Source of the DNA: an uncultured Gemmatimonadales bacterium
Lineage (GTDB): Bacteria > Gemmatimonadota > Gemmatimonadetes > Longimicrobiales > RSA9
DNA: 64,000 nucleotides
Direction: 5' to 3'
Assembly: GCA_963798845.1 (NCBI GenBank)
Contig: CAWCUS010000002.1
Location: forward strand, 128,001 to 192,000
Positions within the stretch are counted from its first letter, which is position 1; each line of letters starts with the position of its first letter. The notes under the pieces are model-generated. The model saw only the letters and a program-made list of their open reading frames with translations, searched no databases and was not told the DNA's origin. Position numbers and translations under genes: made by a program. Shown piece by piece: positions 17,062-62,705 of this stretch.

Positions 17062-17340
17062 ACCCGGGCCCCGACCGCCGGGCTGTTCCTCGGTGACGTA
17101 GCCGGCTCCGCGACCAGGAAGACCTTCCTGTGCGCGGCGATGTACCGCGGCGCGTCGTCCACCGAGCCCTCCGAGATCTGCGACAGATCCCCTTCGTCGC
17201 GCAGCGTCGCTCCGCGGATCCGCTTCACGGCTACGGGGTCCATTCGCGGCCTCGTGCGGTTCGAGCGGCGAAGTCGGCACGGGACGGCTCGCCTGTTGCG
17301 TTCGTGAAGGTGGGAGCATCCACCAGACCGGAGGGGGCCG

Positions 17341-39534: not shown

Positions 39535-39670
39535 GCGGGGGAGTTTGCACCGGTCCGGCGGGCAGAGGGATAGCTCGGCCGGACAAATATTGAATGTGGA
39601 TCCAGGTCCGAGTATGGTCCGAGTATGGCGGGTCCTCCCGAGATCCCTCTGCAGCCGTTACTTTCCCGGC

Positions 39671-40589: not shown

Positions 40590-40699
40590 ACGACGACGCC
40601 CTGCGGCTGCGCGGCGGATTCCCGCCGAGGCCGGCCCGGAGTTGCCTGCCGGGGGGCGGGGATGCTATCCGTTCCCGCCACGAGAGGAGGGGTAGGTCC

Positions 40700-42914: not shown

Positions 42915-43005
42915 GCCACGTGGGCGGGCCACCCCGGCCCGTCCGGCAATCCCAGTGGACCGCGGTCCCGAGGCGCGCGAGATCGGGCTGCGGGGAGGAG
43001 GATCG

Positions 43006-44955
43006 ATGGGCGCGACAATGGTCGAGAAGATCGCACGGGCCCACATGGTCGACGGGCCCGATCGCCCGCTCCGGCCCGGGGACATGATTTCGCTCCGGCC
43101 GCGGCACATACTGACGCACGACAACACGGCCGCGGTGATGTCGAAGTTCCGCGCAATCGGCGTGGAGCGGATCCATGACCCGCGTCAGCCGGTGATCGTG
43201 CTGGATCACGAGATCCAGAACCGCTCGCCCGAGAACCTGGAAAAGTACACGCGGATCCGTGCCTTCGCCCGTGAGCACGGGCTGGACTTCCATCCGGCGG
43301 GGACGGGGATCGGGCACCAGATCATCGTCGAGCGCGGCTATGCGCTCCCCGGCACGCTGGTGGTGGCGTCCGACTCCCACGCCAACACGTATGGCGCGGT
43401 TGGCGCGCTGGGCACGCCCGTGGTGCGCACGGACGCCGCCGCGATCTGGGCCACGGGGGAGTTCTGGTGGCAGGTGCCGGCGACCGTGCAGGTGGTGCTG
43501 GAAGGGGAGCTGCGACCGGGCGTCAGCGGCAAGGACCTGATCCTCACCCTGTGCTCGCTCTATCCGGCCGGGGAAGTGCTGAACCGGGTCGTGGAGTTCG
43601 CCGGGCCCGGGGTCGCCTCGCTGGACATGGCGGCGCGCATGACGGTGGCGAACATGACCACGGAGTGGGGGGCGCTCGGCGGGTGGTTCCCTGTGGACTC
43701 GCGCACGCTCGAGTTCCTGCGGGAGCGGAAGGCGAGGCTGGAGGCGGCGGACCACCATCGGATCACCGACGCGCAGCTCTTCGCGTGGGGCGCGGCTCCG
43801 CCGCGGCCGGACTCGGACGCCCGCTACGTGGCCCGGATCATCGTGGACCTGGGCAGGGTCAGCCCGTTCCTGGCCGGGCCGGACACGGTGCAGACGGGGC
43901 GGCCGGTGGCGGAGACGGAGGCGGACGGGATCCGCATCGACAAGGCGTACCTCCTTTCCTGCGTGAACGGTCGGCTGGAAGACCTGGAAGCGGCTGCGGA
44001 CGTGGTCCGCGGGCGTCGCGTCGCGCCGCACGTCTCGTTCTTCGTGGCGGCGGCGAGCCGGGAGATCCAGGAGAAGGCCGAGGCGAGCGGGGCGTGGGGC
44101 ACGCTCCTGGACGCGGGCGCCCGGGTGCTCCCGCCCGGCTGCGGCCCGTGCATTGGACTGGGAGAGGGGCTGCTCCAGGACGGGGAGGTCGGGATCTCGG
44201 CCACGAACCGGAACTTCAAGGGACGGATGGGCTCCCGCGACGCCCGCGTGTACCTGGCCAGCCCGGCCGTGGTGGCGGCGTCGGCGCTGGCCGGACGCGT
44301 AAGCAATGGGCGCGTCGCCGGCGGCATCCCGCCGTACGAGTTTCACCGGCTCGACCTGGCCGAGGAGGGCCCGGAGTCGGTGGAGATCATGGCGGGGTTC
44401 CCCGAACGGATCACGGGCCGCCTGGTCTTCGTTCCGCAGGAGAACCTGAACACGGACGGGATCTACGGTAAGGAGCACACGTACCGGGATCGGTCGGTGG
44501 CGGAGATGGCGGCAGCGGTCATGGCGAACTACGATCCGGAATTCGCGAGCCGCACCGCCGCGGGCGACGTCCTGGTGGGGACGCGGAACTTCGGCACGGG
44601 ATCCAGCCGGGAGCAGGCGGCCACCGCTCTCCAGGCGAAGGGGATCGCGCTGGTGATCGCGGAGAGCCTGTCGCAGACGTACCAGCGGAACGCGTTCAAC
44701 AACGGCTTCATCTGCCTGGAGTGCCCGTCGCTGGTGCAGTCGATCGAAAAGGCGCTGGCCGGGGAGATCGCGGAAGGGGAGCCCACGATCGTCACGGGTG
44801 ACGAGCTGAGCGTGGACTTCCGACGGGGGACCATCGAGTGGCGGCGCAAGACGTACCGTTTCCCGGCGCTCGGGCGGGTGCCGCAGAGCCTGGTGGTCGC
44901 GGGGGGCGTCGAGGCGAAGATCCGGGCGACGCTCGGGGGCAACGCAGACCGTTGA
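43006..44955 (+). CDS. lysF: Homoaconitase-like, large and small subunits fused (fungal Lys4/LysF type)
   Basis: THDNT, GIGHQ, SDSHAN.YG, RTDAAAIWATG..WWQVP, SCVN.R, CGPCIGLG.GLL..GEVGISATNRNFKGRMGS, NTDGIY.K, NFGTGSSREQAATAL. Confidence 0.85.
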   Translation: MGATMVEKIARAHMVDGPDRPLRPGDMISLRPRHILTHDNTAAVMSKFRAIGVERIHDPRQPVIVLDHEIQNRSPENLEKYTRIRAFAREHGLDFHPAGTGIGHQIIVERGYALPGTLVVASDSHANTYGAVGALGTPVVRTDAAAIWATGEFWWQVPATVQVVLEGELRPGVSGKDLILTLCSLYPAGEVLNRVVEFAGPGVASLDMAARMTVANMTTEWGALGGWFPVDSRTLEFLRERKARLEAADHHRITDAQLFAWGAAPPRPDSDARYVARIIVDLGRVSPFLAGPDTVQTGRPVAETEADGIRIDKAYLLSCVNGRLEDLEAAADVVRGRRVAPHVSFFVAAASREIQEKAEASGAWGTLLDAGARVLPPGCGPCIGLGEGLLQDGEVGISATNRNFKGRMGSRDARVYLASPAVVAASALAGRVSNGRVAGGIPPYEFHRLDLAEEGPESVEIMAGFPERITGRLVFVPQENLNTDGIYGKEHTYRDRSVAEMAAAVMANYDPEFASRTAAGDVLVGTRNFGTGSSREQAATALQAKGIALVIAESLSQTYQRNAFNNGFICLECPSLVQSIEKALAGEIAEGEPTIVTGDELSVDFRRGTIEWRRKTYRFPALGRVPQSLVVAGGVEAKIRATLGGNADR

Positions 44956-44985
44956 CGGGTCCCGGCGAGCGGATCCCGGTCAACG
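44950..44985. other. Intergenic stem-loop between the aconitase and dehydrogenase genes
   Basis: CGTTGAC/GTCAACG outer stem with GGG/CCC and TCC/GGA inner pairs, directly before the AGGAGG RBS. Confidence 0.45.
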
Positions 44986-44998
44986 CAAAAGGAGGAGC

Positions 44999-46213
44999 AT
45001 GAAGCACACGGTCGTGACAATGCCTGGGGACGGGATCGGCAAGGTGGTGCTGCCGGAGGCGCTGCGGGTGCTGGACGCGGTGGGTTTCGAGGCGGAGTAC
45101 GTCCACGGCGACATCGGCTGGGACTTCTGGGTCAGCGAGGGGAACGCGCTGCCGGAGCGGACCGTGGCGCTGCTGGCGCAGCACAGGCTGGGGCTGTTCG
45201 GCGCGATCACGTCGAAGCCGAAGACGGAGGCGGCGCGTGAGCTGAAGCGCGAGCTGAAGGACCAGGGCTACGTGTATTTCAGCCCCATCGTAGGACTGCG
45301 GCAGCGCTTCGATCTCGACATCTGCATCCGCCCCTGCCGTTCCTTCCCGGGGAACCCGCTGAACTTCGTCCGGCGTGATCCGGCGGGAGGCGTGGCCGAG
45401 CCGGCGGTGGATTCGGTGATCTTCCGTCAGAACACGGAAGGGCTGTATTCGGGGGTGGAGTGGACGAACCCGCCGAAGGGCGTGCGGGACGCGCTGGCGA
45501 CGCACCCGAAGTTCAAGCCGTTCACCGACACGCCGTCGCACGACCTGGCGATCTCGACGCGGATCTTCACGCGCCGCGCCTGCGCGCGGATCACGCGCGC
45601 CGCCTTCGAGTACGCGGTGAAGCACGGTTACGAGAGCGTGACGGTGTGTGAGAAGCCGAACGTGCTGCGGGAGACCAGCGGGATGATGGAAGAGGAAGCG
45701 AAGAAGGCGCACGAGGACTTCCCCGACATCCAGCTCTGGTCGACGAACATCGACGCGCAGATGATGTGGCTGACGAAGAACCCTGAAGACTACGGGGTCA
45801 TCGTCGCCGGGAACATGTTCGGCGACATCGTGAGCGACGGCTTCGCGGGGCTGGTCGGTGGCCTCGGTTTCGCCTGCTCGGGGAACCTGGGCGACAATGT
45901 GGCCGTCTTCGAGCCGACGCACGGCTCGGCGCCCAAGTACGAGAAGCTGGATCCGCCCATCGTGAACCCGATCGCCATGGTCCTGAGCGCGGCCATGCTC
46001 CTGGACCACGTGGGCGAGCGGGAGAAGGCGGAGCAGGTGCGGGCCGCGGTGGCGGCCGTGGTGCGCGATGGCAGCGTCCGCACCTACGACATGATGCGGA
46101 TCCCCGGCGGGCCCGGCGCGATCGCGCAGGGGGCCGCCAGCACCACTGAGCTGACCGACGCCATCATCGCCGCGCTGTCCGCGCGCGCAGTCGCGAGCGG
46201 GCAGGCGGGATGA
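44999..46213 (+). CDS. Isocitrate/isopropylmalate dehydrogenase family, homoisocitrate-dehydrogenase-like
   Basis: PGDGIG, LFGAITS, YFSPIVGLRQ.FDL...RP (similar to yeast Lys12 YSSPIVALR as recalled), RQNTEGLY, K.NV, NMFGDI.SD, FEP.HGSAP. Confidence 0.85.
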   Translation: MKHTVVTMPGDGIGKVVLPEALRVLDAVGFEAEYVHGDIGWDFWVSEGNALPERTVALLAQHRLGLFGAITSKPKTEAARELKRELKDQGYVYFSPIVGLRQRFDLDICIRPCRSFPGNPLNFVRRDPAGGVAEPAVDSVIFRQNTEGLYSGVEWTNPPKGVRDALATHPKFKPFTDTPSHDLAISTRIFTRRACARITRAAFEYAVKHGYESVTVCEKPNVLRETSGMMEEEAKKAHEDFPDIQLWSTNIDAQMMWLTKNPEDYGVIVAGNMFGDIVSDGFAGLVGGLGFACSGNLGDNVAVFEPTHGSAPKYEKLDPPIVNPIAMVLSAAMLLDHVGEREKAEQVRAAVAAVVRDGSVRTYDMMRIPGGPGAIAQGAASTTELTDAIIAALSARAVASGQAG

Positions 46214-47565
46214 GCGGGCCGGAGGCCGGCGTTTCGCCGGGCGCCCGAATGGCCGCCGGAGCGGCGGTGGTGGCGGGTCGGGGAGAGGCGGGGCGAGCCG
46301 GCGATGACGTCCGCTCCGACCTGCACGTCGTCGTGGAAGCGGGCGGCGACGCCGTGACGCTGGACGTGAGGTCGAAGGTGGCGTCGTTGTTCGGCGACGC
46401 GATCCGCGCCACCGTCCTCGAGACCCTCAATGCGTTCGGGGTGAGCGCCGCTCGCGTGGTCGTGGATGACAAGGGCGCCGTGCCCTGGGTGATCGCGGCG
46501 CGCGTGGAAGCCGCGGCCCGCGCCGCCGGCCTGGTGGAGCGGACCGGCGCCGCCGTTCCCTGCGCCGGAGGACGAGGGCCGGCGCTGGGTTTTCCGGCGA
46601 CGAGCCCGACCCCGAGGGACCGGCTCCGCCGGTCCCGCCTCTACGTCCCCGGAAACGAGCCCAAGTTCATGCCGAACGCGGGGCTGCACCGTCCGGACGG
46701 CGTGATCCTGGACCTCGAGGACTCGGTCCACCGGGGCGCGAAGCCGGCGGCCCGCCTGCTGGTCCGGAACGCGCTGCGCTGCGTCGATTTCGGCGCGGCC
46801 GAGCGGATGGTTCGCATCAATCAGCTTCCGCTCGGGCTGGAGGACCTGGAGGCCATCGTCCCGGAGCTCCCCAACCTGGTGCTGGTCCCGAAAGTGGAGG
46901 AGGCTGCGCAGGTGGCGGAGGTGGCCGCGCGGATCGAGGCGATCCGGTCGTCCGCTGGGCTGCCGTCGAAGGAGGCGCACCCGATCTGGCTGATGCCGAT
47001 CCTCGAGTCCGCGCTCGGGATCGAGAACGCGTTCGCGATCGCGCGCGCGTCGGTCACGGTTGCGGCGCTGACCATCGGGCTGGAGGACTACACGGCCGAC
47101 CTGGGCGTTGTGAAGACGAAGGAAGGTGCCGAGACGCTGTGGGCGAGGGCGCGTCTGGTGAACGCGGCCAGGGCGGCGGGCGTCCAGGCCATCGACTCGG
47201 TGTACGGCGACGTGGCGGACGTGGACGGGCTGCTGGCGTGGGCGCGGGCGTCGCACGCCATGGGCTTCGTGGGCATGGGGTGCGTGCACCCCCGCCAGAT
47301 CCGGGTGATCCACGCGGGCTTCGCCCCCACGCCGGAGGAGCTGGAGAAGGCACAGAAGATCGTGGCGGCGTTCCACGACGCGGAGGCGCGGGGCCTGGGC
47401 GTGGTGAGCCTGGGGAGCAAGATGATCGACCCGCCGGTAGTGCTGCGGGCCACGCGGCTGGTGGAGCGGGCGAGGGAGATGGGGGTTCTGGACGCAAGCG
47501 CGGCCGACGCGGGTGCGGTTGCGGCGTCGCCGGCCTCGAACGGGTCGGAGGGGGGTGGCGAGTGA
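46210..47565 (+). CDS. citE: Citrate lyase ACP (CitD)-beta subunit (CitE) fusion
   Basis: N-terminus AG....RSD..V...S.V...FG..I...V...L...GV......DKGA...I.ARV.AA (CitD); C-terminus RRS.LY.PGN, ILDLEDSV, VRIN, GLEDYTADLG, AIDSVY.D, HPRQI (CitE). Confidence 0.88.
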   Translation: MSGPEAGVSPGARMAAGAAVVAGRGEAGRAGDDVRSDLHVVVEAGGDAVTLDVRSKVASLFGDAIRATVLETLNAFGVSAARVVVDDKGAVPWVIAARVEAAARAAGLVERTGAAVPCAGGRGPALGFPATSPTPRDRLRRSRLYVPGNEPKFMPNAGLHRPDGVILDLEDSVHRGAKPAARLLVRNALRCVDFGAAERMVRINQLPLGLEDLEAIVPELPNLVLVPKVEEAAQVAEVAARIEAIRSSAGLPSKEAHPIWLMPILESALGIENAFAIARASVTVAALTIGLEDYTADLGVVKTKEGAETLWARARLVNAARAAGVQAIDSVYGDVADVDGLLAWARASHAMGFVGMGCVHPRQIRVIHAGFAPTPEELEKAQKIVAAFHDAEARGLGVVSLGSKMIDPPVVLRATRLVERAREMGVLDASAADAGAVAASPASNGSEGGGE

Positions 47566-49175
47566 GCGTGATGACGAAGGTCTCCACGGCGCCGTGGCTG
47601 GACGGGCCGGCGTGGGCGGAGCTGGTGGAGAACGCCGCGGGGCGGCAAGTGCCGCGGGTGGTGAACGGGGAGGCGCAGACGCCGTACGCCGGCGTGGCCG
47701 GCCATGCACCCGACGGCCGGAAGGCCGGTGCGGCCATCCGCTCCGCGCGCGACTATCCGGCGAGCGGCGACAAGCGATCGGGGACCCTGCGCGCGGCGCT
47801 GGAGGCGTGCGGGCTGCGGGATGGGATGACCCTCTCGACGCATCATCATTTCCGGAACGGCGACCGGGTGGCGGTGGCGGCGCTCCAGGCGGCCGCGGAG
47901 CTCGGGGCGAAAGGTCTGCGCTGGTTCCCCAGCGCATCGTTCCCCGCCCATGCGCCGGTGGTGGAGCTGATGGATCGGGGGGTGGTGCACCACATCGAGG
48001 GGAGCATGAACGGCGCCCTCGGCGACTACACGTCGAAGGGAAAGATGGCGGGACTCGGGGTCCTGCGCTCGCACGGCGGCCGGTGGCAGGCGATCCAGGA
48101 CGGCGAGGTGCACGTGGACATCGCGGTGATCGCGGCGCCGACGGCCGACCTGTTCGGCAACGCGGACGGCTCGCATGGCCCTTCCGCCTGCGGCTCGCTC
48201 GGCTTCGCTCTGGCCGACTCCATGTACGCCGACCGCGTGATCGTGGTGACGGACAACGTGGTGCCCTTCCCGTGCATCCCGTGGCAGATCCAGGGGAACA
48301 ACGTGGACCACGTGGTGGTGGTGGACTCGGTCGGGGATCCGTCGAAGATCGTTTCCGGCACCACCGAGATCACCAGGAGTCCCGACCGGCTGCTGATCGC
48401 GGAGTACGTGGCGCGTTTCCTCAAGGATGCGGGGATCATGCGCGACGGCTTCAGCTTCCAGGCCGGCGCCGGAGGGATCGCGCTGGCCTTCGTCGGCTAC
48501 CTGAAGGAAATGATGAAGGAAGCCGGGGTGAAGGCGAGGTTCGTCCGGGGCGGCTCGACGAAGTACCTGGTGGACCTGCTGCGGGAGGGGCTCACCGATT
48601 ACATCCTGGACGGGCAGACCTTCGACCTGGCGGGCGTCGCGTCCATCGGCAGCGACCCGCGCCACGTCGCCACGTCGCCGTTCACGTCCTACAACTACCA
48701 CGGCAAGGGGAACTTCGCCTCCATGGTGGATGCCGTCGTGCTCGGCGCCACGGAAGTGGATTTGGACTTCAACGCGAACGTGGTCACCCATTCCGACGGG
48801 ATGCTCCTGCACGGCATCGGCGGCTGGCAGAACTGCCTGTTCAGCGGGTGCACCATCCTGGCCGTGCCCGCGTTCAGGGACCGGATCCCTGTGCTGGTGG
48901 ACCGGGTCACCACGCTGACCGGGCCCGGCGAGCTGATCGACGTGGTAGTGACGGAGCGAGGGATCGCGATCAACCCGCGACGCGACGACCTGATCCGCGC
49001 CGCCGCTGGCTCCGACCTCCCGATCCGCCCACTGGCCGAGATCAAGGTGGAAGTGGACCGGATGATCGGGGGCGCGCCCTCGCCGGCGCGCGTGACCGAG
49101 CGCCCCGTCGCCATCGTGAAATGGGTGGACGGGACCGTGCTGGACACGGTGTACCAGGTGGCCAGTCCCGCGTAA
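47562..49175 (+). CDS. citF: Citrate lyase alpha subunit / CoA-transferase
   Basis: GMT.S.HHH.RNGD, RSHGGR..AI..GE, CGSLG.A..D, FSFQ.GAGG..LA, LGA.E.D..FN.NV, T.PG..ID..VTE.GIA.NP.R.DL, DGTV.D.V. Confidence 0.9.
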   Translation: MSVMTKVSTAPWLDGPAWAELVENAAGRQVPRVVNGEAQTPYAGVAGHAPDGRKAGAAIRSARDYPASGDKRSGTLRAALEACGLRDGMTLSTHHHFRNGDRVAVAALQAAAELGAKGLRWFPSASFPAHAPVVELMDRGVVHHIEGSMNGALGDYTSKGKMAGLGVLRSHGGRWQAIQDGEVHVDIAVIAAPTADLFGNADGSHGPSACGSLGFALADSMYADRVIVVTDNVVPFPCIPWQIQGNNVDHVVVVDSVGDPSKIVSGTTEITRSPDRLLIAEYVARFLKDAGIMRDGFSFQAGAGGIALAFVGYLKEMMKEAGVKARFVRGGSTKYLVDLLREGLTDYILDGQTFDLAGVASIGSDPRHVATSPFTSYNYHGKGNFASMVDAVVLGATEVDLDFNANVVTHSDGMLLHGIGGWQNCLFSGCTILAVPAFRDRIPVLVDRVTTLTGPGELIDVVVTERGIAINPRRDDLIRAAAGSDLPIRPLAEIKVEVDRMIGGAPSPARVTERPVAIVKWVDGTVLDTVYQVASPA

Positions 49176-51074: not shown

Positions 51075-52559
51075 ATGAGACCCGGGCGCGACCGAAGGAT
51101 CGTCACGGCGGCCCTCATCCTCGGGATGTTCCTGGCTGCCCTCGAAGCCACTGCGGTGGGCACGGCGATGCCGACGGCCGTGGCCGAGCTGGGGGGCGTG
51201 GCCCGCTATTCGTGGGTGTTCTCCGCCTACCTGCTCACCTCCACGACCGTGGTCCCGCTGTTCGGGAAGCTGGCCGACCTGTACGGGCGACGCCGGATCT
51301 ACGTCCTGAGCGCGCTGCTCTTCATGGCGGGGTCGATGCTGTCCGGGCTCGCCGGCAGCTTCAACCAGCTGATCGCGTTCCGGGCCATCCAGGGGCTGGG
51401 CGCCGGCGGGGTCATGCCGGTGGCCACGACGCTCATCGGCGACATCTACCCGCTGGAGGAGCGCGGGAAGATCCAGGGGCTCTTTTCCGGTGTCTGGGGC
51501 GTTTCCAGCCTGGTGGGCCCCGCGGTGGGTGGGCTCGTGACGCAGCTTCTCAGCTGGCGCTGGGTCTTCTACCTGAACGTCCCTTTCGGCATCGCATCGG
51601 TGGTACTGCTCCAGCTCTACCTGACGGAGCGGCAGGTGAGGCGGGAGCACCGGCTCGACATCATGGGCACCGTGCTGCTGACGCTGTCGGTGACCGTCCT
51701 CCTGCTCACGCTCCTGGAGGGGACCGAGCTCTTCGGGTGGGGCGACTGGCGCACCCTCGGCCTGCTGGGGCTGTCGATGCTCGGGACCGCCCTCTTCCTC
51801 CTCCAGGAGCGACGCGCGGCCGAGCCGATGCTCCCCCTCGCCCTCTTCCGCAACCCGGTGATCTCGGTGTCCAGTGCCGGGAACGTGGTCCTGGGCACGG
51901 TCCTGTTCTGCGCCACGGCGTTCGTCCCCATGTTCACGCAGGGCGTGCTGGGGGGCACGGCAGTCGACGCGGGGATGAGCCTGGCGCCCATGTCCATCGG
52001 GTGGCCGATCGCGAGCACCGCGGCCGGGTGGCTCCTGTTGCGCGTCGGATACCGCCCGCTCGGCGTGATGGGCGCGCTGGCGACGTTCGCCGGCACGGCC
52101 GTCCTTCTCGGCGCCGGCCCGGAGTCCTCGCGTACCCTGCTCATGGCGGCAATGCTGGTGACGGGGGTGGGGCTCGGGCTCGTCTCCACGCCGTACCTCG
52201 TGGCGGTGCAGAACGCAGTGCCCTGGCAGCTGCGCGGCGTGGCCACGAGCAGCACGCAGTTCTTCCGCACGATCGGCGGCGCCATCGCCGTGGCGGGGCT
52301 CGGCGCGGTCCTCACCACGCACCTGAACGAGGCCAACGTGCAGCTGGATCCCAACATGGCGCTGAATCCCGCCCTGCGGGGCGCCGTGCCGCCCGAACAG
52401 CTGGACGCGCTCCGGCAGGCGCTCGCGGGCGGGCTCCACTCCGTCTACATCGGCATGCTCGTCGTGGCTGCGGCTGGTGTGGCCGTGGCGCTGGTGTTCC
52501 CGCGCGGCAGCGCGCAGTCCCAGGCCCACGACGCTGCGGGCCCCGGGCGTCCGGGCTAG
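51075..52559 (+). CDS. MFS multidrug transporter (DHA2/MDR family)
   Basis: FLAALE.T.V.TAMP, W...AYLL......P.FGKL.D.YGRR, RAIQG.GAG, GP..GG, W.W.FY.NVP. Confidence 0.93.
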   Translation: MRPGRDRRIVTAALILGMFLAALEATAVGTAMPTAVAELGGVARYSWVFSAYLLTSTTVVPLFGKLADLYGRRRIYVLSALLFMAGSMLSGLAGSFNQLIAFRAIQGLGAGGVMPVATTLIGDIYPLEERGKIQGLFSGVWGVSSLVGPAVGGLVTQLLSWRWVFYLNVPFGIASVVLLQLYLTERQVRREHRLDIMGTVLLTLSVTVLLLTLLEGTELFGWGDWRTLGLLGLSMLGTALFLLQERRAAEPMLPLALFRNPVISVSSAGNVVLGTVLFCATAFVPMFTQGVLGGTAVDAGMSLAPMSIGWPIASTAAGWLLLRVGYRPLGVMGALATFAGTAVLLGAGPESSRTLLMAAMLVTGVGLGLVSTPYLVAVQNAVPWQLRGVATSSTQFFRTIGGAIAVAGLGAVLTTHLNEANVQLDPNMALNPALRGAVPPEQLDALRQALAGGLHSVYIGMLVVAAAGVAVALVFPRGSAQSQAHDAAGPGRPG

Positions 52560-53299
52560 GGGACGCGCAGCGTGGCCGCCGCGCGGCCGATGCGCGCGAG
52601 CTGGTACGGTCCGCTGGACGTGGCCGCGGTGGCCTCGAGCACGAGCTCCATCCCGACTCGGTAGCGTCCTCGCTCCAGCCGCACGCCGCCTATCGGACCG
52701 GAGAGGGTGCGGCTGTAGCGCCCGTTCGGCTGCAGAGCGTCGGTCGCGTCCGGGAACTGGTCGATGAGGACGGCGCCATCGGGGCGGATCTCGATGGTGA
52801 GGGCGCCAATGTCGCCGCCGGGGACGGGAGAGCCATCGTCGCCCAGGATGGTGCCCGAGACCTCTGCTCGGGGCAGGCCCGCCCCGCCGATCTCCACGTC
52901 GGCCAGCGTCAGGTCGATCTGGAGCTCCACCTTGCCGGCCGCTCGCACCTCCATGGGGAAGACGACGCGGCTGAGGGAGCGCGCCGTGGCATAGCGGACG
53001 TCCGGGCCGGCGGCCGTGTCCACGGGCTCGGCTGCCACGCCGCCCGCGAGTCGTCCGGGCCGTGGCTCCTCGGAATAGGCGGAAGTCAGGCTGTCCGCGG
53101 CCCAGAGCTCGGGATCGCCGGGGCCGTAGGAAGCGGGCGCACGCGAGGGGGACGCGTCGTCGGCGGAGCCACGGGCGGTGGCGGAGGTCGTACGGCCCTC
53201 GAGCCATATGTCGGCGCTCCGAGCGCACGCGGACGTCGCGGCGAGGGTGGCGGCGAGGACGATGTGGACGGCGCTGCGCGTCGTCGCGCGATGATCCAT
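52556..53299 (-). CDS. Hypothetical lipoprotein
   Basis: Hydrophobic signal ending ATSAC; GGAG upstream; beta-rich C-terminus. Confidence 0.55.
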   Translation of the reverse strand: MDHRATTRSAVHIVLAATLAATSACARSADIWLEGRTTSATARGSADDASPSRAPASYGPGDPELWAADSLTSAYSEEPRPGRLAGGVAAEPVDTAAGPDVRYATARSLSRVVFPMEVRAAGKVELQIDLTLADVEIGGAGLPRAEVSGTILGDDGSPVPGGDIGALTIEIRPDGAVLIDQFPDATDALQPNGRYSRTLSGPIGGVRLERGRYRVGMELVLEATAATSSGPYQLARIGRAAATLRVP

Positions 53300-53508
53300 G
53301 ATGGACTCCCGGCTCCGGGTGATCGCCGCGAGCGGACAGCGAGCGCACGGCGGACCGTGGCGCCGGCACCGGCCGCGCGGAGCGTCGGCCGCTGCGGTCG
53401 ACGTGGTCAATCTGGCCGTGCGGGGGCAGGGGCGCGATGAGCCGCACGGGGAACACCTCTTGCTCTCCCCACAGGTGAGTTGCTCGAGTCCTCCCACCCG
53501 GAGCCGTC

Positions 53509-55239
53509 ATGGGTCACGATCAGAACGGCGACCGTATGCCGCGCCCCGATCGTTCCGCCGCCCCCTCCGCTCAGCCCCATCCAGACCGCACCGGCTCCGG
53601 AGAGGCCGGGGGCGGGCACCCGCTGCGCCGGATTCTCTGCGTGTTCCCGCAGTACGCCCGCTCGTTCGGCACGCTGCACCACGCGTATCCGCTGCACGGC
53701 CGCGCCCGCGCGTTCATGCCCCCACAGGGGCTGCTGGTCGTGGCCGGCGCGATCCCGGACCATTGGGAAGTGCGCTTCGTGGACGAGAACCTGGGCCGGG
53801 CCAAGGACGAGGACTACGAGTGGGCGGACGCCGTGTTCATCACCGGGATGCACGTGCAGCGCGACCGGATCCGGGAAGTGAACGCCACCGCGCACCGGCA
53901 CGGCCTCGTGACCGCGCTGGGGGGGCCGTCGGTCTCGGCGTGCCCGGAGTGGTACCCGGACGTGGACCTGCTGCACATCGGCGAGCTCGGCGATGGCACG
54001 GACGCGCTCTTCGCCCGGGTCGGCCGGACAGTCGATCGCCCGCGGGACCAGCTCACCTTCGAGACCACGGAGCGGCGGCCGCTGCACGAGTTCCCGCTCC
54101 CCGCGTACGAGCACATCGACGTCCGCGACTACTTCCTGGCGAGCATCCAGTACTCCAGCGGCTGTCCCTTCCGCTGCGAGTTCTGCGACATCCCGGAGCT
54201 GTATGGCCGCGTCCCTCGGCTGAAGACGCCGGAGCAGGTGTGCGCGGAGCTGGACGCGCTCATGGCGTCGGGCCCGCCGGGCGCCGTCTACTTCGTGGAC
54301 GACAACTTCATAGGGAGCCAGAAGGCGGCGCTTCAGCTCCTCCCGCACCTGGTGGAATGGCAGCGGCGGAACGGCTATCCCCTGAGCCTGGCGTGCGAAC
54401 TGTCGATCAACGTCGCCCGCAACGAGCGGATCCTGGAGCTCATGCGCGAGGCGTGGTTCCACACGGTGTTCGTCGGGATCGAGACGCCGGACGAGGACTC
54501 GCTGCGCGGGATCTCGAAGAAGCAGAACCTGGGGATGCCGATCCTGGAGGCGGTGGAGATCCTCAACTCGTACGGGTTCGAGGTGGTGTCGGGGATCATC
54601 ATGGGGCTGGACACGGACACGGAGGAGACGCCCGACCGGATCCTCGAGTTCATCGAGGCGTCCGCCATCCCGATGCTCACGATCAACCTCCTGTACGCGC
54701 TTCCGCGGACACCGCTCTGGCGACGCCTGGAGAAGGAGGGGCGGATCCTCTCGGACGGGGCGGGCGGCGATGAGTCGAACGTGGATTTCAAGCTCCCCCG
54801 CGAAGTGGTGCGGGAGGGCTGGCTGCGGGCGGTGCGCGAAGCGAACGCGCCCGAGGCGCTCTACCGCCGCTTCCAGCACCAGGTGGACCACACCTACCGG
54901 AACCGCTTCGACCCGGGAGAGAACCGGAGGGTGCCCGAGGGATCGCTCCGGAAAGGGCTCGGGATGCTGGCGCGCATCTTCTGGGAGGTCGGCGTGCGCA
55001 GCGATTACCGCCGCACGTTCTGGCGCTTCGCCCTGCCTGCGCTCAGGGAAGGCAGGATCGAGTCGCTGGTGCACGTGCCGATGGTGGCGCACCACCTGAT
55101 CCAGTTCGCCCGTGACTGTGACGCCGGTGTGGGCGAGTACTCCTTCTACTCCCCCGAGGGCACGCCCGGCCGCGCCCCGGCTGGAAAGCGCCGTGGCCAA
55201 CACTCGCTCGTCCACCTCGAGATGGGCCGCAGCGGATGA
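53509..55239 (+). CDS. hpnP: B12-binding radical SAM protein, hopanoid C-2 methylase (HpnP)-like
   Basis: RILCVFP.Y..SFGT..H.YPL....AFMPPQGLL, WADAVF..GMH.QR, LGGPSVSACP..YP, H.GELGD.TD, SIQYSSGCP..CEFCDIP.LYGR.PRLK (CxxxCxxC), EVVSGII.GLDTD, ESNVDF, VAHHLI. Colinear with Rhodopseudomonas HpnP as recalled. Confidence 0.82.
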   Translation: MGHDQNGDRMPRPDRSAAPSAQPHPDRTGSGEAGGGHPLRRILCVFPQYARSFGTLHHAYPLHGRARAFMPPQGLLVVAGAIPDHWEVRFVDENLGRAKDEDYEWADAVFITGMHVQRDRIREVNATAHRHGLVTALGGPSVSACPEWYPDVDLLHIGELGDGTDALFARVGRTVDRPRDQLTFETTERRPLHEFPLPAYEHIDVRDYFLASIQYSSGCPFRCEFCDIPELYGRVPRLKTPEQVCAELDALMASGPPGAVYFVDDNFIGSQKAALQLLPHLVEWQRRNGYPLSLACELSINVARNERILELMREAWFHTVFVGIETPDEDSLRGISKKQNLGMPILEAVEILNSYGFEVVSGIIMGLDTDTEETPDRILEFIEASAIPMLTINLLYALPRTPLWRRLEKEGRILSDGAGGDESNVDFKLPREVVREGWLRAVREANAPEALYRRFQHQVDHTYRNRFDPGENRRVPEGSLRKGLGMLARIFWEVGVRSDYRRTFWRFALPALREGRIESLVHVPMVAHHLIQFARDCDAGVGEYSFYSPEGTPGRAPAGKRRGQHSLVHLEMGRSG

Positions 55240-56255
55240 GGAAGCCGACCGTGAAGGTCTGGGGCACCGTCCTGCTCCTGGTCGGGCTCGGCCTCACCAT
55301 ATTCTTCGTGGTCACGACGGGGCCCGCCCGCATCTGGGGAATGCTCCGGGAGGCAGGCTGGTGGGTGCTCGCCGTGGCGTTCGCCCACTTCGCCTACATC
55401 GCGATCCTCGCCATGGCATGGCGGACGCTGCTCCACGCCAATGGGGCCAGGGCCCCGTTCCGCGACATCTTCTACTACCGCTGGGTGGCCGACGGATCGC
55501 AGGCGCTCCTCCCGGGCCCCGAGGTCACCGGGGACGTCATGCGCGGCTACCTCCTGGCACGTCGGCGGCCGGAGGTCCAGGGACCCGTCTCGGCGGCGGT
55601 GATCATCGTGGAGCTCACGCTCCGGATGGTCTCGCTGATCCTGTTCATCGGGACCGGGCTCATCCTGCTGGCCATACGGGGCCAGGGCATGGTCAACACG
55701 CTGGTGGCGGGCGGGATCCTCGTCGCCATGCTGGCGTCCCTGGTCTACGTCCAGCGCGCGAGCCTCCTGCGCAAGCTGGCCACCAAGATGGAGCGCCGCG
55801 CGCAGCAGGAGCGCTGGCTCCGGTTCGCCGGAAGCATGAGCGGGGTGGACGCGGAGATCGGGACCATCTACGGAGAGACCGGCGCCCTCGCCCGCACCGC
55901 CGGCTGGCACTTCCTCGGCTTCTTCTTCGCCGCGGCCGAGATCTGGATGCTCCTCTACGCCGTCCACCACTACGTCGGCGCGCCGGACGTGGTGGTGTTC
56001 GAGAGCATCGGCCGCGCGGCCTCCAACGCCGGGTTCTTCATGCCCGCCGGCCTGGGGGCGCAGGAGGGCGGCTACCTGCTGGGCGCCCGCTTCGTCGGTC
56101 TGGCCGCCGCCGTGGGCGTGGCCATCTCGCTGCTGAAGCGGCTGCGCGACGTGCTGGTCGGGCTGCCGGCGCTGGGGCTGCTCTGGTTCCGGGAGATTCG
56201 CTCGCCCGCCGACCGGGAGGAGCTCCGCGAGGTCACCGCGCCACCGATCCCCTGA
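55236..56255 (+). CDS. HpnL-like / lysylphosphatidylglycerol-synthase TM (flippase-like) protein
   Basis: W..LL, RW......LLP...V.G...R, F..PAG.G.QEGGY, SL.KR.RD...G.P; ATGA overlap with hpnP. Confidence 0.78.
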   Translation: MRKPTVKVWGTVLLLVGLGLTIFFVVTTGPARIWGMLREAGWWVLAVAFAHFAYIAILAMAWRTLLHANGARAPFRDIFYYRWVADGSQALLPGPEVTGDVMRGYLLARRRPEVQGPVSAAVIIVELTLRMVSLILFIGTGLILLAIRGQGMVNTLVAGGILVAMLASLVYVQRASLLRKLATKMERRAQQERWLRFAGSMSGVDAEIGTIYGETGALARTAGWHFLGFFFAAAEIWMLLYAVHHYVGAPDVVVFESIGRAASNAGFFMPAGLGAQEGGYLLGARFVGLAAAVGVAISLLKRLRDVLVGLPALGLLWFREIRSPADREELREVTAPPIP

Positions 56256-56311: not shown

Positions 56312-56430
56312 CCGCCGGGTCAGCGGGCCTCGGCCGCCGGGTCAGCGGGCCTCGGCCGCCGGGTCAGCGGGCCTCGGCCGCCGCGTCAGCGGGCCTCGGC
56401 CGCCGGGTCAGCGGGCCTCGGCCGCCGCGT
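56312..56430. repeat. Five tandem copies of a 22-bp unit that includes the stop codon of the AI-2E gene
   Basis: GTCAGCGGGCCTCGGCCGCCG(G/C) at 56319, 56341, 56363, 56385 and 56407. Confidence 0.93.
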
Positions 56431-57508
56431 CCACGTCCGGCGAGGCGTCCACGGCTTCCCGCTCCTTCGGCGCCACCACCTCCAGCACGAACACGCGCAC
56501 CGCCGCCGCGGACGGGATCGCGACCAGGATCCCCAGGATGCCGCCGACGCCGCCGCCGACGATGATGGCGAACAGCACCAGGGTCTGCGGCACGTCCGTC
56601 TGGCTGCGCATGATGTTGGGCGTGAGCAGATGCCCTTCGACCTGCTCGAGGCCGGTGTAGAGGAGGATGGCGATGACGGCCTTGGTCAGCGACTGGAGGA
56701 GCGCGATCAGCGCCACGATCACCCCCACCACGATCGGGCCGATGAAGGGGACCACCTCGCCCAGCATGGTGAGCACTCCGAGCGCCAGCGGGTAACGCAC
56801 GCCGATCAGGAGCAGCCCCACGTAGGCCAGGATCCCCATGATCACCGCGTTGATCACCGCACCCCGCACGTAACCGCCCATGGTCTGACCCATCCGGTGC
56901 AGGACCTGGCGCGTCTTGCGGCGGTGGCGGTCCGGGACGAGGGACAGGGTGAAGTCGCGGATCGCGCGCGCCGTGATCAGCCAGTAGATGCTGAGGAAGA
57001 TCACCACCAGCACATCGATGGCCGCGCCCATGATCATCGTGGGGGCTGCGATCACGAGGTCGCCGAGGCGACCCTGCATCGACCCGGCGAAGCCGGCCAT
57101 GTCCTGCTGCGAGAGCAGGCCGATGCGGCTGAGTCGCTCCTGAACGTCGCCGATGAGCGACGGTGCGCGCTGCACCAGCTCCTGCCCCTGGTCCACCAGC
57201 GCGGGAGCGACGAACCAGCCGAGCCCCACGAGCACCGCGACGATGGCCAGATAGACCACCGTGACGGCGAGCGTGCGGCGGTGGATCCGCTCCTCCACCC
57301 AGCCGACCACCGGCGCCAGCGACTCCGCGAGCGTGATGGCCACGATCAGGAGCGCGAGCGGCCGGAGCATCATCCCGATCAGCTGGATCACGCCGAGCCC
57401 CAGGGCCAGGGCGGCGGCCAGCGGCAGGACCACCTCCCAGCGCATCCGGCTCAGCGTGGCGTGTACGACGCCTGGTTCCGACCCTTCCGTCTCGCGGTTC
57501 CGTGCCAT
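56408..57508 (-). CDS. AI-2E (PerM) family transporter
   Basis: L.P.V...E, P....Q, YVRG, VPFIGP, QVEG..L.P.IM, GG..GI.G..VAIP. Confidence 0.9.
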   Translation of the reverse strand: MARNRETEGSEPGVVHATLSRMRWEVVLPLAAALALGLGVIQLIGMMLRPLALLIVAITLAESLAPVVGWVEERIHRRTLAVTVVYLAIVAVLVGLGWFVAPALVDQGQELVQRAPSLIGDVQERLSRIGLLSQQDMAGFAGSMQGRLGDLVIAAPTMIMGAAIDVLVVIFLSIYWLITARAIRDFTLSLVPDRHRRKTRQVLHRMGQTMGGYVRGAVINAVIMGILAYVGLLLIGVRYPLALGVLTMLGEVVPFIGPIVVGVIVALIALLQSLTKAVIAILLYTGLEQVEGHLLTPNIMRSQTDVPQTLVLFAIIVGGGVGGILGILVAIPSAAAVRVFVLEVVAPKEREAVDASPDVDAAAEAR

Positions 57509-59223: not shown

Positions 59224-60963
59224 TCACTGGGGCCCGATCCGGGCGACGAGCGCCTGGAAGCGGGGGTGGGAGCGCAGCGGCGCGAACAGGAACGACCCCC
59301 TGATGCCGCTGATGGCCGCGGCTCGTTCTTCGAATGCGCGCTCGAGGAGATCTATGGCGCGCTCGTGCTCGCCGAGACCGGTGTGGATGTAGGCCAGGTG
59401 GTACGGGGCCACGAACTCCGTGGCCGCGCGCTCGGAGAGTTGGTCCAGGATCCGCCGCGCGTCGTCGGTGCGGCCGGCCACGGCGAGGGCCTGTCCGAGC
59501 TGGGCGAGCCACTGCGGGCTGTCTGGCGCAAGCTCGACGGCGCGCTCGAGCTCGGCGACTCCCTCGTCGTGCCGGCCCTGCATCATGAGCGCCCAGCCGA
59601 GTGTCGCGTGGCCCCGATCCTGTTCCGGGTCGAACTCGATGGCGCGGACGGCCTCGGCCTCGGCTTCCTGGTGGCGGCCCGCCCGGAGCAGCGTGCTCGC
59701 CACGTCCAGGCGGTGGACCAGCGGGTCCAGCTCCTGTGCGTGCCGCTGGAGCTCGAGGGCCTCGTCGAATCGTCCCACTGAAGCGCACAGGCGGCCATAG
59801 AGGTCGTAGGCATCGGTGCTGCTGGGGCACAGCTCGATCGCTCGCCGGAAGCCCGCCTCGGCGGCCGCCCAGTCGAACTCCCAGATCGCCTGGAGCTGCG
59901 CCATGGCGCAATGGGCCTCGGCCAGGTTGGGATCCAGGCGGAGCGCCTTGCCCGCGGCGTCCATGGCCAGCGGCCGCGCGACCTCGGCGCGGGTGGCCCC
60001 GCCCTCCGCCAGCTCCGCGTGCGCGAGGGCGATGCCGGTGTAGGCGAGGGCATACCCGGGATCGACGGCCACCGCGCGGCCGTAGAAATGGAGGGCTCGT
60101 CTGAGCCCGGTGGGCGTGAAGCGGATGAACCAGTGGCGGCCCTTCAGGTAGAGCTGGTAGGCTTCCACGCTCGTGGTCGGCTCCTTGCCGACGCGGCTCC
60201 GCTCGTCGGGCGAGAGCTCGGCCTCCAGGGCGGCGGCGATCTGGAGCGCCACGTCCGTCTGGATCGCGAAAATGTCCGTCAGCTCGCGGTCGTAGGTGTC
60301 CGCCCAGACGTGGCGGTCGGAGCGCACGTCGACGAGCCGCGCCACGATGCGGACGCGCCCCCCCGAGCTGCGAACGCTGCCGTCCAGCACGGTGCTCGCC
60401 CCCACGGCGGCACCGATGTCCCGGAGGCTGTGCTCCCGTGACTTGAACCGCATCACGGAGGCGCGGGAGATCACCCGCAGCCCGCGGATCCTCGACAGGT
60501 GGGCGATCACGTCCTCCGTGATCCCGTCGGCGAAATAGTCGTTCTCCGACTCCGGACCCAGGTTGACGAACGGGACCACGGCGACCACCGGCGCCGTGGC
60601 CGCGGCGGTCGGGAGTGCCAAGATCGAGGCGTCCGCGGCCGGCACGATCGCCGGGGTCCCTCCGCCCGCGCTGGCCGCCGGGGAGGTGGAGTCCAGGAGC
60701 GTGGCGGGGGGGACCGGCGTCGGAGCGTCCGTCCGCTCGATGCCTCCGGGCACGATGTCGAAGACCCACGCCAGGACGATCGCGACCGGAAGGCCCAGGA
60801 TCGCGAGGACGACCAGCAGCGTCATGGTCCGGGCCGGCAGGTCGAGAGCGGGCACCAGAATGTCCGCGCCCTGGAGCACGCCGAACGCGGCTACCACGTA
60901 GATGATGCCGGCCTGCACCACGCGGCGCCGCCTCAGCTCTGCGACGAACGCTCGGACCCTCAT
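59224..60963 (-). CDS. Membrane-anchored TolB-like/TPR protein (paralogue of 11499..13373)
   Basis: ELRRRRV...Y.V.A....AD; VAV.PF.N.....YFADG.TED.I..LS.I..L.VISR.S; TPRs; P....LR..PRF..L. Confidence 0.85.
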   Translation of the reverse strand: MRVRAFVAELRRRRVVQAGIIYVVAAFGVLQGADILVPALDLPARTMTLLVVLAILGLPVAIVLAWVFDIVPGGIERTDAPTPVPPATLLDSTSPAASAGGGTPAIVPAADASILALPTAAATAPVVAVVPFVNLGPESENDYFADGITEDVIAHLSRIRGLRVISRASVMRFKSREHSLRDIGAAVGASTVLDGSVRSSGGRVRIVARLVDVRSDRHVWADTYDRELTDIFAIQTDVALQIAAALEAELSPDERSRVGKEPTTSVEAYQLYLKGRHWFIRFTPTGLRRALHFYGRAVAVDPGYALAYTGIALAHAELAEGGATRAEVARPLAMDAAGKALRLDPNLAEAHCAMAQLQAIWEFDWAAAEAGFRRAIELCPSSTDAYDLYGRLCASVGRFDEALELQRHAQELDPLVHRLDVASTLLRAGRHQEAEAEAVRAIEFDPEQDRGHATLGWALMMQGRHDEGVAELERAVELAPDSPQWLAQLGQALAVAGRTDDARRILDQLSERAATEFVAPYHLAYIHTGLGEHERAIDLLERAFEERAAAISGIRGSFLFAPLRSHPRFQALVARIGPQ

Positions 60964-60964
60964 G

Positions 60965-61471
60965 TCACGCGCGGCCCTGCTCCCGATCGCGGCTCGCTGC
61001 CAGGCGCTTCATCAGCTGGATCTGGCCGGCGTGATACGTGTCGTGGAGGACAACGCCCGTGATCAGGTCCGCGTACGTGGTGGCACCGCCGCCCGCGGGC
61101 TGGTCGAGACGGCCCGGGTCGAAGGCGCGCAGCGTCTCCAGGAGGCGCTCGTGCCACTCCCGCACGAGGCGCCGCTCCATTTCCCACGCGCCTTCCGAGA
61201 CCGGCCCCAGCTCCGGCCAGTTGGCCGGCGAGAGGGGGAACGCGCCTCGCTCGCCCTGGCTGCCGAGCCGCCGCCACACGGCGTAATTCCAGTAGGCCAC
61301 GTGCACGGCGAGCTCGCGGATGCTGTGCCGGTCGGGGTACGGCTTCCACCCGGCCATCGCCGCGGAGATCCCGCGGATCGAGCCGAGGACCGAGGCACCG
61401 CCGTGCCACGGCTTGAAGCCGGGGGGCGGGTGGAAATGGCGGATCGCCTCCTCGAGGCGGCGGTCGGTCAT
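60965..61471 (-). CDS. DinB family protein
   Basis: PWHG, HSI.EL..H...W, H..YH.GQI.L.K. Confidence 0.85.
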   Translation of the reverse strand: MTDRRLEEAIRHFHPPPGFKPWHGGASVLGSIRGISAAMAGWKPYPDRHSIRELAVHVAYWNYAVWRRLGSQGERGAFPLSPANWPELGPVSEGAWEMERRLVREWHERLLETLRAFDPGRLDQPAGGGATTYADLITGVVLHDTYHAGQIQLMKRLAASRDREQGRA

Positions 61472-61543
61472 GGCGGCTCACGGGCCGTAGTGGCGGCGGC
61501 ACGAAAGCGGGATCGCGGGTGAGCCCATGGTCGTTCTCCTCCG

Positions 61544-62642
61544 CTAGGGTGATCGGGAAAGCGTTGCGTCGACCTCTGGAGCGGCAGCGGTGAACACGGC
61601 TCCGTACAGCCGCAGGGCGTTGCCGCCCAGGATGCCGGCGACGTCGTCGTCGCTGAATCCCCGGCGGTCCAGGGCGTCGATGAACACGGGCAGGTGCGCC
61701 ACGTCCTCCGCGCCGGCGATGAAGCGGATCATGTCGGCGGAGAGATCGTCTCGCACGAGCATTCTGATGCATCGCGTCCATGTAGTAATCCGCATAGTCC
61801 GGGCCCAGCGCGAGGCACCCGGGGCCGGCGAGCCCGGCGATGTGCTCGGCGTGGTCCGCGAGCCGGTCGGGCGTGGTCCGGGCCGGATCGTCGTCGACGA
61901 ACATGCCGAGGAAGTTGAGGCCGATCACGCCGCCACGCTCCCCCACCAGCCGGATCTGCTCGTCCGTCAGGTTTCGCCGGTTCCCGCAAATCGTGCGCGC
62001 GTTCGAATGCGAAACCATGGGCGGGAGGTCGTAGATCTCGATGGCGTCGAAGAAGGAGGAGTCGGACAGGTGCACGAGGTCCAGCACCATGCCGAGTGCC
62101 CGAACCTCGCGCACGACTTTCCGCCCGAAGTTGCTCAGGCCGCCTGGATTCCGCTCGCCGCAGCCGTCGGCGGCGAGGTTGCGCTCGTTGTGGGTCAGGA
62201 TCACCGAGCGGAGGCCGGCCGCGTGCAGGGCCCGCAGCGTGGCGAGGTCCTCCACGCAGCGGATCCCCTCCAACGCGAGCATGAAATGCACGGGATCGCT
62301 CGCCGCCTCCCGGGTGCCGTCGCGGGAAGCCGCCTCCAGCAGGTCGTGCGCGTCGAGCACCAGCCGGAATCCATCGTGTGCCTCGATCTGACGCAGGGTC
62401 TCGTCCATGATGCGCAGCACCAGACGCAGGTCCCAGAGCTCCAGCGAGCCGACCTCGAAGTCCCCGCCCACCGTGAGCACTTCCATGCTCACCCCGCCCT
62501 CGCGCAGGTTCGGCAGGTGCTCGGCAAGGAGGGCGTCCGGCCGCCCCTCCGACGCGGCACGGTACAGCTGGATGGCGTAGTCGGAGTGAACGTCCACGAC
62601 GGGGTGGCGCGGGATGAGGTCGCCGATGGGGCGATCGGTCAT
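61544..62642 (-). CDS. Membrane dipeptidase (peptidase M19); +1 frameshift at ~61763
   Basis: DVHSD, ALEG, LTHN..N..ADG, G.S..G...V, DL.H, SHSN.R......RN..D, G.D; the C-terminal L..RGF......ILG.N.LR lies in the next frame. Confidence 0.88.
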
Positions 62643-62705
62643 GACGGGTCTCCTTCCGGTGCGGGGGCGTGGGCGCCGGTCCACAGGCGACCCGGTCCTC
62701 TCGGG

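Follow-up and report, generated by a model that had tools for sequence, protein, structure and literature searches.

Which bacteria are able to methylate hopanoids at C-2, and does the distribution of HpnP extend to yet another phylum? This question is raised by two adjoining genes in a 64-kb stretch of contig CAWCUS010000002.1 (the window, about 7% of the 898,057-bp contig), the first of which encodes a homologue of HpnP and the second a membrane protein resembling HpnL. HpnP is the hopanoid C-2 methylase (KEGG K22705); in 2010 Welander et al. reportedly defined it by genetic means in Rhodopseudomonas palustris TIE-1. The 2-methylhopanes serve as molecular fossils, and their value hinges on knowing which bacteria make the 2-methylhopanoid precursors.

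An earlier note on this DNA assigned hpnP chiefly to Cyanobacteria, Alphaproteobacteria and a few Acidobacteria, a picture that has been out of date since 2023: according to the text of Hoshino et al. (PMC10697835), HpnP occurs in 12 phyla, with most occurrences in Cyanobacteria, Alphaproteobacteria and Rokubacteria and sporadic ones in the others. The text of a Belin-lab preprint (PMC12324291) likewise has three main HpnP phyla and does not mention Gemmatimonadota. The word Gemmatimonadetes has no match in the main text and eight supplementary files of PMC10697835, whose 135 tree labels represent 12 other phyla. As far as their texts go, these two latest surveys disagree on origin, and both call for experimental benchmarks and for a wider set of lineages (PMC10697835; PMC12324291; commentary PMC13712982).

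On balance we favour the reading that the two genes form an hpnP-hpnL operon encoding an HpnP orthologue and an HpnL-family protein, that the host belongs to the Gemmatimonadota, and that this HpnP falls into a subclade shared with Thermoanaerobaculia-type Acidobacteriota.

An HpnP-clade methylase

The hpnP product has a B12-binding, radical SAM (S-adenosylmethionine) and DUF4070 domain order, with Pfam E-values of 8.1e-18 for Radical_SAM and 1.7e-30 for DUF4070. Its CxxxCxxC motif (C219/C223/C226) is invariant in a 16-sequence alignment, from which an AlphaFold model was obtained (predicted local distance difference test, pLDDT, 73.5; predicted template modelling score, pTM, 0.77) that shows a beta/alpha domain at the N terminus and is weak at either end and near the cluster loop. 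Conservation is poor over an N-terminal extension of ~39 residues; the conserved core begins at R40 (RRILCVFP). Over about 510 residues the protein is 56-62% identical to cyanobacterial and alphaproteobacterial homologues, a resemblance to HpnP that we judge to be far beyond chance; domains, motif and identity all bear out the full-length likeness that had been noticed earlier.

Among 5.8 billion proteins, a word-indexed search listed at least 120 homologues, including proteins of 86% (P0003, on a 1.41-Mb contig), 79% (P0004) and 75% identity (P0005, on a 4.46-Mb contig), a block at 66-72%, and cyanobacterial proteins at 58-62%. Twelve of the 120 listed, spanning 58-72% identity, carry the JGI name "hopanoid C-2 methylase". 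An exhaustive HMMER search of 1.84 billion representatives clustered at 50% identity revealed a sharp gap among full-length matches: a single representative (56%, 659 bits) stood well above the next (43%, 399 bits), and the others were at 39% or less. No HpnP-specific match was found in NCBIfam, none of whose models was passed by the protein. The C-3 methylase HpnR (TIGR04367) was rejected as a candidate at 53 bits against a cut-off of 650, as were the other NCBIfam families of B12-dependent radical SAM proteins, whose best scores lay far below their cut-offs.

In the text of Hoshino et al. (PMC10697835), HpnP is surrounded by several HpnP-like clades sharing the three domains, and many cyanobacteria have both kinds of protein. 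Because the domains are the same in both, the window protein had to be placed relative to HpnP and HpnP-like sequences. We fetched 80 loci out of at least 599 related stretches listed, and left out 54 of them, mostly redundant Nostoc and other cyanobacteria; the resulting trees have 55 rows, consisting of the window protein, 14 homologues, 26 locus translations and 14 outgroup proteins of 29-40% identity. The window protein lies inside the 41-row HpnP clade in all three trees, with all 14 HpnP-like rows outside. Support for this clade on the Shimodaira-Hasegawa-like approximate likelihood ratio test (SH-aLRT) is 99 in the quick LG+G4 tree and 99 in the quick LG+C20 tree with posterior mean site frequencies (PMSF); in the careful LG+G4 tree the ultrafast bootstrap (UFBoot) is 100 and the SH-aLRT 99, so that the tree with an outgroup of B12 radical SAM proteins called for in the earlier note places the protein where that note had expected it.

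The HpnP clade has a long stem, and besides the window protein and every cyanobacterial row it takes in an Afipia (Nitrobacteraceae) sequence and representatives of Planctomycetota, Gammaproteobacteria, Armatimonadota, Vulcanimicrobiota and Acidobacteriaceae. The cyanobacterial rows include strains from the HpnP ingroup of Hoshino et al.: Chlorogloeopsis fritschii PCC 6912, Stenomitos frigidus ULC18, Iningainema BLCC-T55 and Gloeomargaritaceae C42_A2020_066. Thirteen outgroup rows fall on the other side of the tree, and the 43% protein (P0269) is a long-branched sister of the HpnP clade. Measured against 27 clade reference rows, to which it is 52-62% identical (29-40% to the HpnP-like rows), the window protein retains 169 of 181 near-invariant columns; its 12 departures are conservative or common to its subclade. 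Three differences from the cyanobacterial/alphaproteobacterial consensus, R421D, Y431R and Y446N, also occur in the acidobacterial sister group. Of 40 clade-specific columns the window protein keeps 33, as against 1-6 in the 14 outgroup rows. We assign it, on phylogeny and diagnostic residues, to the HpnP clade and not to the HpnP-like paralogues.

Coupling to an HpnL-family protein

The start of the hpnL-like gene overlaps the stop of hpnP by 4 bp in an ATGA, the usual sign of translational coupling, and we read the pair as a two-gene operon (Table 1). Both reading frames are intact, agree with the coordinates of the earlier note and have a coding-type composition, with G+C fractions at third and second codon positions (GC3 and GC2) of 0.92 and 0.46 in hpnP and 0.95 and 0.48 in hpnL; the whole window is about 71% G+C. 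The pair is a self-contained unit because the open reading frame (ORF) upstream is divergent and the transporter gene downstream is convergent.

The hpnL-like product (P0002) matches the Pfam family LPG_synthase_TM (PF03706, 1.4e-27) and, at 198.2 bits with a cut-off of 195.65, the NCBIfam HpnL model TIGR03476 across model positions 2-315 of 318. Score and ATGA overlap together uphold the earlier description of an HpnL-like gene coupled to hpnP. The protein has few relatives, 22 with the query included. One of 79% identity is encoded on the 1.41-Mb contig of P0003, and one of 62%, together with two paralogues, on the 4.46-Mb contig of P0005; identity then drops to about 30% to clear TIGR03476 members, of which P0132 (303.6 bits) is 29% identical over 306 residues. 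The TIGR03476 cut-off is passed by 17 of the 21 relatives, and typical members score 221-341 bits. An Atlas search confirmed the LPG_synthase_TM family and gave nothing further. TIGR03476 domains are found predominantly in Pseudomonadota, as stated in the text of PMC12324291, and HpnL has no established function according to the texts of PMC12324291 and PMC12583986.

A subclade shared with Acidobacteriota and its hopanoid clusters

Within the HpnP clade, P0003, P0004 and P0005 form a group with the window protein (99/97). The sister of this group (100/100) comprises ten rows, L001, L002, L003 and L026 among them, at 69-72% identity. These four loci come from uncultured Acidobacteriota/Thermoanaerobaculia metagenome-assembled genomes (MAGs), and they are the nearest organism-named HpnP relatives among the matches listed. 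In three of the four (L001, L002 and L003) hpnP lies inside a hopanoid cluster; the fourth, L026, is only 5.5 kb long. The L001 cluster includes, within about 8 kb of hpnP, a squalene-hopene cyclase (SHC; TIGR01507, 693.5 bits, cut-off 431.1), HpnH (351.6 bits, cut-off 225.05) and HpnA (468 bits, cut-off 367.65), as well as an HpnG-like phosphorylase, squalene synthase, DXS and IspH. The gene order over L001 positions 4736-18055 is ispH, dxs, two ORFs of no assigned family, hpnP, squalene synthase, hpnG-like, hpnA, hpnH and shc.

The text of Hoshino et al. (PMC10697835) states that synteny of squalene cyclase and HpnP was observed in no phylum. The clusters of hpnP with shc in L001-L003 contradict this statement, as does the presence of shc within the fetched flanks of six of the 80 loci (L001-L003, Scytonema HK-05, a Microcoleus MAG and an Afipia MAG). 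The Thermoanaerobaculia/Acidobacteriota group of this subclade is absent from the 135-taxon HpnP tree of PMC10697835, and the string "Thermoanaerobacul" has no match in the readable supplements of that paper. The only cultured member of the Thermoanaerobaculia analysed in PMC5462960 (2017) lacks both shc and hpnP, according to the text of that study. A subclade common to the window HpnP and Thermoanaerobaculia-type Acidobacteriota suggests an old horizontal exchange between two soil phyla.

The two ORFs directly upstream of hpnP in L001-L003 (L001 7903-8775 and 8779-9942) have no Pfam or NCBIfam match. The 290-aa ORF of the two has homologues of 36-46% identity a few kb from hpnP in four Nostoc/Scytonema loci (L031, L033, L040 and L072), and is a candidate for an uncharacterised hpnP-associated gene. 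No homologue of it was found in the window, and a comparison of the 46 window proteins other than HpnP with the 80 loci revealed no conserved neighbours.

Proposed function of the gene pair

The mechanism of class B radical SAM methylases is established for the enzyme class and is applied to the window HpnP by inference. The [4Fe-4S] cluster, bound by C219, C223 and C226, would reductively cleave SAM, and the resulting 5'-deoxyadenosyl radical would take a hydrogen from C-2 of the hopanoid ring A. The substrate radical would then accept a methyl group from methylcobalamin bound in the N-terminal B12 domain, and the cobalamin would be re-methylated by a second SAM. The B12 dependence of HpnP has been confirmed experimentally, as stated in the text of Hoshino et al. 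(PMC10697835), citing Elling et al. 2020. The HpnL-family protein is related to the flippase/transmembrane domain of lysyl-phosphatidylglycerol synthase, and its most likely role is to translocate hopanoid lipids in the cytoplasmic membrane or to modify their head groups.

Membership of the HpnP clade, the hopanoid clusters of the sister clade and the coupling to hpnL are what suggest that the host makes 2-methylhopanoids. This goes no further than an inference because there is no shc in the 64 kb and HpnP-clade genes exist in genomes without a squalene cyclase. It may be, although we would sooner bet against it than for it, that Longimicrobiales-type Gemmatimonadota and Thermoanaerobaculia-type Acidobacteria, both of them common in soil, share an undescribed HpnP subclade and are both genuine 2-methylhopanoid producers, with HpnL acting on (methylated) hopanoids.

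Objections and alternative explanations

Several observations count against the operon reading as a whole or against parts of it, and are collected in this section. The B12-binding domain of the hpnP product reaches 2.4e-06 and 27.8 bits, below the Pfam gathering score of 32.1. None of the tree references is an HpnP proven by experiment, and the rows include neither R. palustris TIE-1 nor N. punctiforme PCC 73102. The HpnL score is just 2.5 bits over the cut-off, and the closest relative of the protein, P0123, lies below it at 187.2 bits. An HpnL-like gene stands near hpnP in just two of the 80 loci, directly after it in L003 and about 5 kb away in L001, and the HpnL-like protein of L003 is 30% identical to that of the window over only 130 residues. 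Because the partners share so little, the two adjacencies may be independent, and common descent of the hpnP-hpnL arrangement is uncertain. A literature search, which did not extend to figures and subscription journals, found no paper in which hpnP, shc or hopanoids are connected with either Gemmatimonadota or Longimicrobiales.

The strongest alternative, unlikely in our view, is that the host has an HpnP-clade enzyme in a genome without a squalene-hopene cyclase, and that it methylates some other polycyclic or isoprenoid lipid, or external hopanoids, without making 2-methylhopanoids of its own. No hopanoid or squalene gene is apparent in the 64 kb: Pfam scans of the 46 called ORFs and 17 gap ORFs gave no SQHop_cyclase domain, tblastn of SHC, HpnH, HpnA, HpnG, squalene synthase, DXS and IspH from L001 gave nothing at E<=1e-3, and neither shc nor hpnH is present. 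The absence of shc from the window, remarked upon earlier, is thereby confirmed. There is a precedent in the myxobacteria, which carry HpnP-clade genes without a squalene cyclase (text of PMC10697835), so that clade membership is no proof of hopanoid methylation, and the experimentally tested enzymes in the text of PMC10697835 include no HpnP of the "early-diverging" phyla or of the present subclade. Nor did our literature search turn up hopanoids or shc in Gemmatimonadota, and the window pair stands apart from any cluster while hpnP of the sister clade lies within one. Against this, the window HpnP is 69-72% identical to proteins whose genes are embedded in shc/hpnH clusters, and its gene is coupled to one of the HpnL family; in Alphaproteobacteria, genomes without hpnH lack hpnL (text of PMC12583986). 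Moreover, hpnP is commonly away from shc: the latter is present in the fetched flanks of no more than six of the 80 loci, and hpnP often lies elsewhere than in the hpn cluster (text of PMC12583986). The window itself covers only about 7% of its contig, and a cyclase gene may lie elsewhere in the genome.

At 14182-16858 the window encodes an archaeal-type 3-hydroxy-3-methylglutaryl-CoA (HMG-CoA) synthase (TIGR00748, 506 bits, cut-off 353), followed by a thiolase and then a DUF35/ChsH2 protein with an oligonucleotide/oligosaccharide-binding (OB) fold, which together make up the three-protein module at the entry of the mevalonate pathway. The window has neither dxs nor ispH, whereas DXS and IspH are encoded in the acidobacterial hopanoid clusters.

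Less probable again is a host from an Acidobacteriota lineage such as Vicinamibacteria or Thermoanaerobaculia, in which case the phylum would be one already known for hpnP and the unexpectedness of the lineage would fall. Judged by the single marker PntB (37030-38445), the host is most likely a member of the Gemmatimonadota, order Longimicrobiales. Organism names are attached to 21 of the 120 listed PntB homologues, and 20 of these belong to the Gemmatimonadota (16 Longimicrobiales, an order of that phylum, and 4 Gemmatimonadota/Gemmatimonadetes), in agreement with the host suggested earlier. The one exception, a Vicinamibacterales protein (an order of Acidobacteriota) of 80% identity, is the best organism-named match. 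In a FastTree phylogeny of 118 rows, from which P0185 and P0186 were dropped for length, the window PntB is nested among Gemmatimonadota-labelled rows, with the Vicinamibacterales label inside the same 18-row clade. The Acidobacteriota/Thermoanaerobaculia labels of the HpnP sister clade also speak for an acidobacterial host, as does an Atlas search with a 1112-aa BNR/sortilin protein of the window, in which the commonest phylum is Acidobacteriota in three listed clusters and Gemmatimonadota in three. Yet the lone Vicinamibacterales label is nested within the Gemmatimonadota matches, and HpnP is the only window protein closely matched in the flanks of the Acidobacteriota loci. A weaker point in the same direction is that the window has the archaeal-type HMG-CoA synthase/thiolase set as against DXS and IspH in the acidobacterial clusters.

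Labels of this kind can mislead, including those used here for host taxonomy, because the HpnP homologue of a "Gemmatimonadaceae bacterium" (P0087, on a 7.3-kb contig) falls inside the cyanobacterial HpnP clade; this contig is probably mis-binned.

The third alternative, that the window protein is an HpnP-like B12/radical SAM/DUF4070 paralogue, comparable to the second cyanobacterial homologue once mistaken for HpnP, might appeal to the domain architecture common to both groups (text of PMC10697835) and to the lack of any HpnP-specific or near-threshold NCBIfam score, but its exclusion from the HpnP-like rows in every tree, its much lower identity to them and its 33 clade-specific residues bring that explanation close to refutation.

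Neighbouring genes and other features of the window

The coordinates of the hpnP-hpnL operon are given in Table 1. On the 3' side of hpnL is a convergent gene for an AI-2E-family transporter and then prmA. On the 5' side of hpnP, beyond a minus-strand lipoprotein-like ORF, are a weak acyltransferase match and a DHA2 efflux pump of the major facilitator superfamily (MFS), which are separated from the operon because the minus-strand ORF intervenes. A promoter scan of the region upstream of hpnP returned no sites, the sigma-70 consensus not being found, and a terminator scan returned a single unconvincing candidate inside hpnL.

Table 1 Coordinates of the hpnP-hpnL gene pair and its junctions within the window
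Feature	Positions	Strand	Description
hpnP	53509..55239	+	576 aa; HpnP-clade cobalamin-dependent (class B) radical SAM methylase
hpnL-like gene	55236..56255	+	339 aa; polytopic membrane protein, LPG_synthase_TM / TIGR03476 (HpnL) family
ATGA overlap, hpnP stop / hpnL start	55236..55239	+	direct sequence reading and ORF coordinates
Divergent intergenic region, presumed promoter region	53300..53508	.	~210 bp between minus-strand lipoprotein-like ORF and hpnP

The ORF divergent from hpnP (52556-53497, minus strand) has no family match. Its probable start is Met67, from which the translation MDHRATTRSAVHIVLAATLAATSAC has a signal/lipobox-like beginning (…LAATLAATSAC…) resembling a lipoprotein precursor; the long part upstream of Met67 is probably not translated. 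Just 3' of hpnL, where the convergent ORF of the AI-2E transporter has its 3' end, is a tandem repeat (56312-56431) with a 22-bp unit, CCGCCGGGTCAGCGGGCCTCGG, present in 5.5 copies with a 96% match. Because each unit contains TCA (TGA on the minus strand), the stop and last codons of the transporter are tandemly reiterated.

Elsewhere in the window three genes appear to be frame-split. Around 40250 (39086-41257 and 40248-40589) a heme o synthase/UbiA profile is divided between positions 1-159 and 152-247, and around 61900 (60960-62705 and 61544-61924) an M19 dipeptidase profile between positions 5-274 and 278-316; at about 15300-15560 a thiolase match begins only at profile position 87. These may be either indel errors of long-read assembly or pseudogenes. 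The genes at 41682-49175, all on one strand, encode a PrpD/MmgE protein, an aconitase-family protein, an isocitrate/isopropylmalate dehydrogenase, a fused acyl carrier protein (ACP)-citrate lyase beta protein (HpcH/HpaI) and citrate lyase alpha (CitF), and appear to form an unusual organic-acid metabolism cluster.

Significance

The claim that an unexpected lineage widens the range of potential 2-methylhopanoid producers has to be split. Gemmatimonadota is indeed outside the 12 HpnP phyla of PMC10697835, and, in the text and readable supplements of the two surveys (PMC10697835; PMC12324291), a carrier from that phylum is absent; one further phylum is an increment and no surprise, because HpnP was already reported from 12 phyla, mostly sporadically. 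The HpnP-clade gene is genuine and undamaged and has an HpnL partner, and its host phylum is probably a new one. The sequences of the pair and its relatives are already in public databases.

If the less probable reading of a shared subclade of genuine producers holds, Gemmatimonadota would be the thirteenth HpnP phylum and the two lineages a terrestrial source of 2-methylhopanes that is neither cyanobacterial nor alphaproteobacterial, and the hpnP-hpnL coupling would provide a first genetic handle on HpnL function. The practical gain is modest: a further sporadic case among heterotrophs that are not marine, probably acquired by horizontal transfer, which would leave the interpretation of the Precambrian marine record unchanged. 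More useful are the by-products: a distinct Thermoanaerobaculia/Longimicrobiales-type subclade with shc synteny, and a compact hpnP-hpnL operon that could serve as a construct for the study of HpnL function.

Comparison with known systems

No HpnP structure is present in the copy of the PDB that we searched by sequence and by Foldseek, and the sequence search gave weak matches to 9ccb, 9n1b and 6fd2. The best fold matches to the model of the window protein are the cobalamin-dependent radical SAM enzymes AprD4 (6fd2), MgmA (9ccb), CysS (9n1b), OxsB (5ul4), TsrM (6wte) and TokK (7kdx), with Foldseek E-values from 6e-16 to 1e-10 and query-normalised template modelling (TM) scores of 0.49-0.56. 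These solved structures differ from the window protein in their low identity (12-20%) and in their substrates. The class B radical SAM fold and the domain order are also common to the HpnP-like proteins and HpnR.

With HpnP itself the likeness is much closer, as the window protein has the matching three-domain architecture and radical SAM motif and belongs to the same strongly supported clade. The HpnP proteins of Afipia and C. fritschii PCC 6912 are each 56% identical to the window protein and 61% identical to each other. The window protein differs from described HpnP in belonging to a separate subclade, in its N-terminal extension of about 39 residues, and in the direct coupling of its gene to hpnL. 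Its partner resembles TIGR03476 HpnL in matching the model over its full length above the cut-off and in its linkage to a putative hopanoid gene, by a 4-bp overlap with hpnP and with neither shc nor hpnH in the 64 kb, and departs from typical HpnL in its borderline score and in being coupled to hpnP rather than standing beside shc.

The closest comparison is with the Thermoanaerobaculia/Acidobacteriota loci. In L001-L003 the cluster around hpnP contains shc, hpnH, hpnA, squalene synthase, dxs and ispH, whereas the window pair stands by itself between unrelated genes, which code for an MFS efflux pump, a lipoprotein, an AI-2E transporter and PrmA. The arrangement of the pair itself recurs in L003, where an HpnL-like gene is found immediately downstream of hpnP, as in the window.

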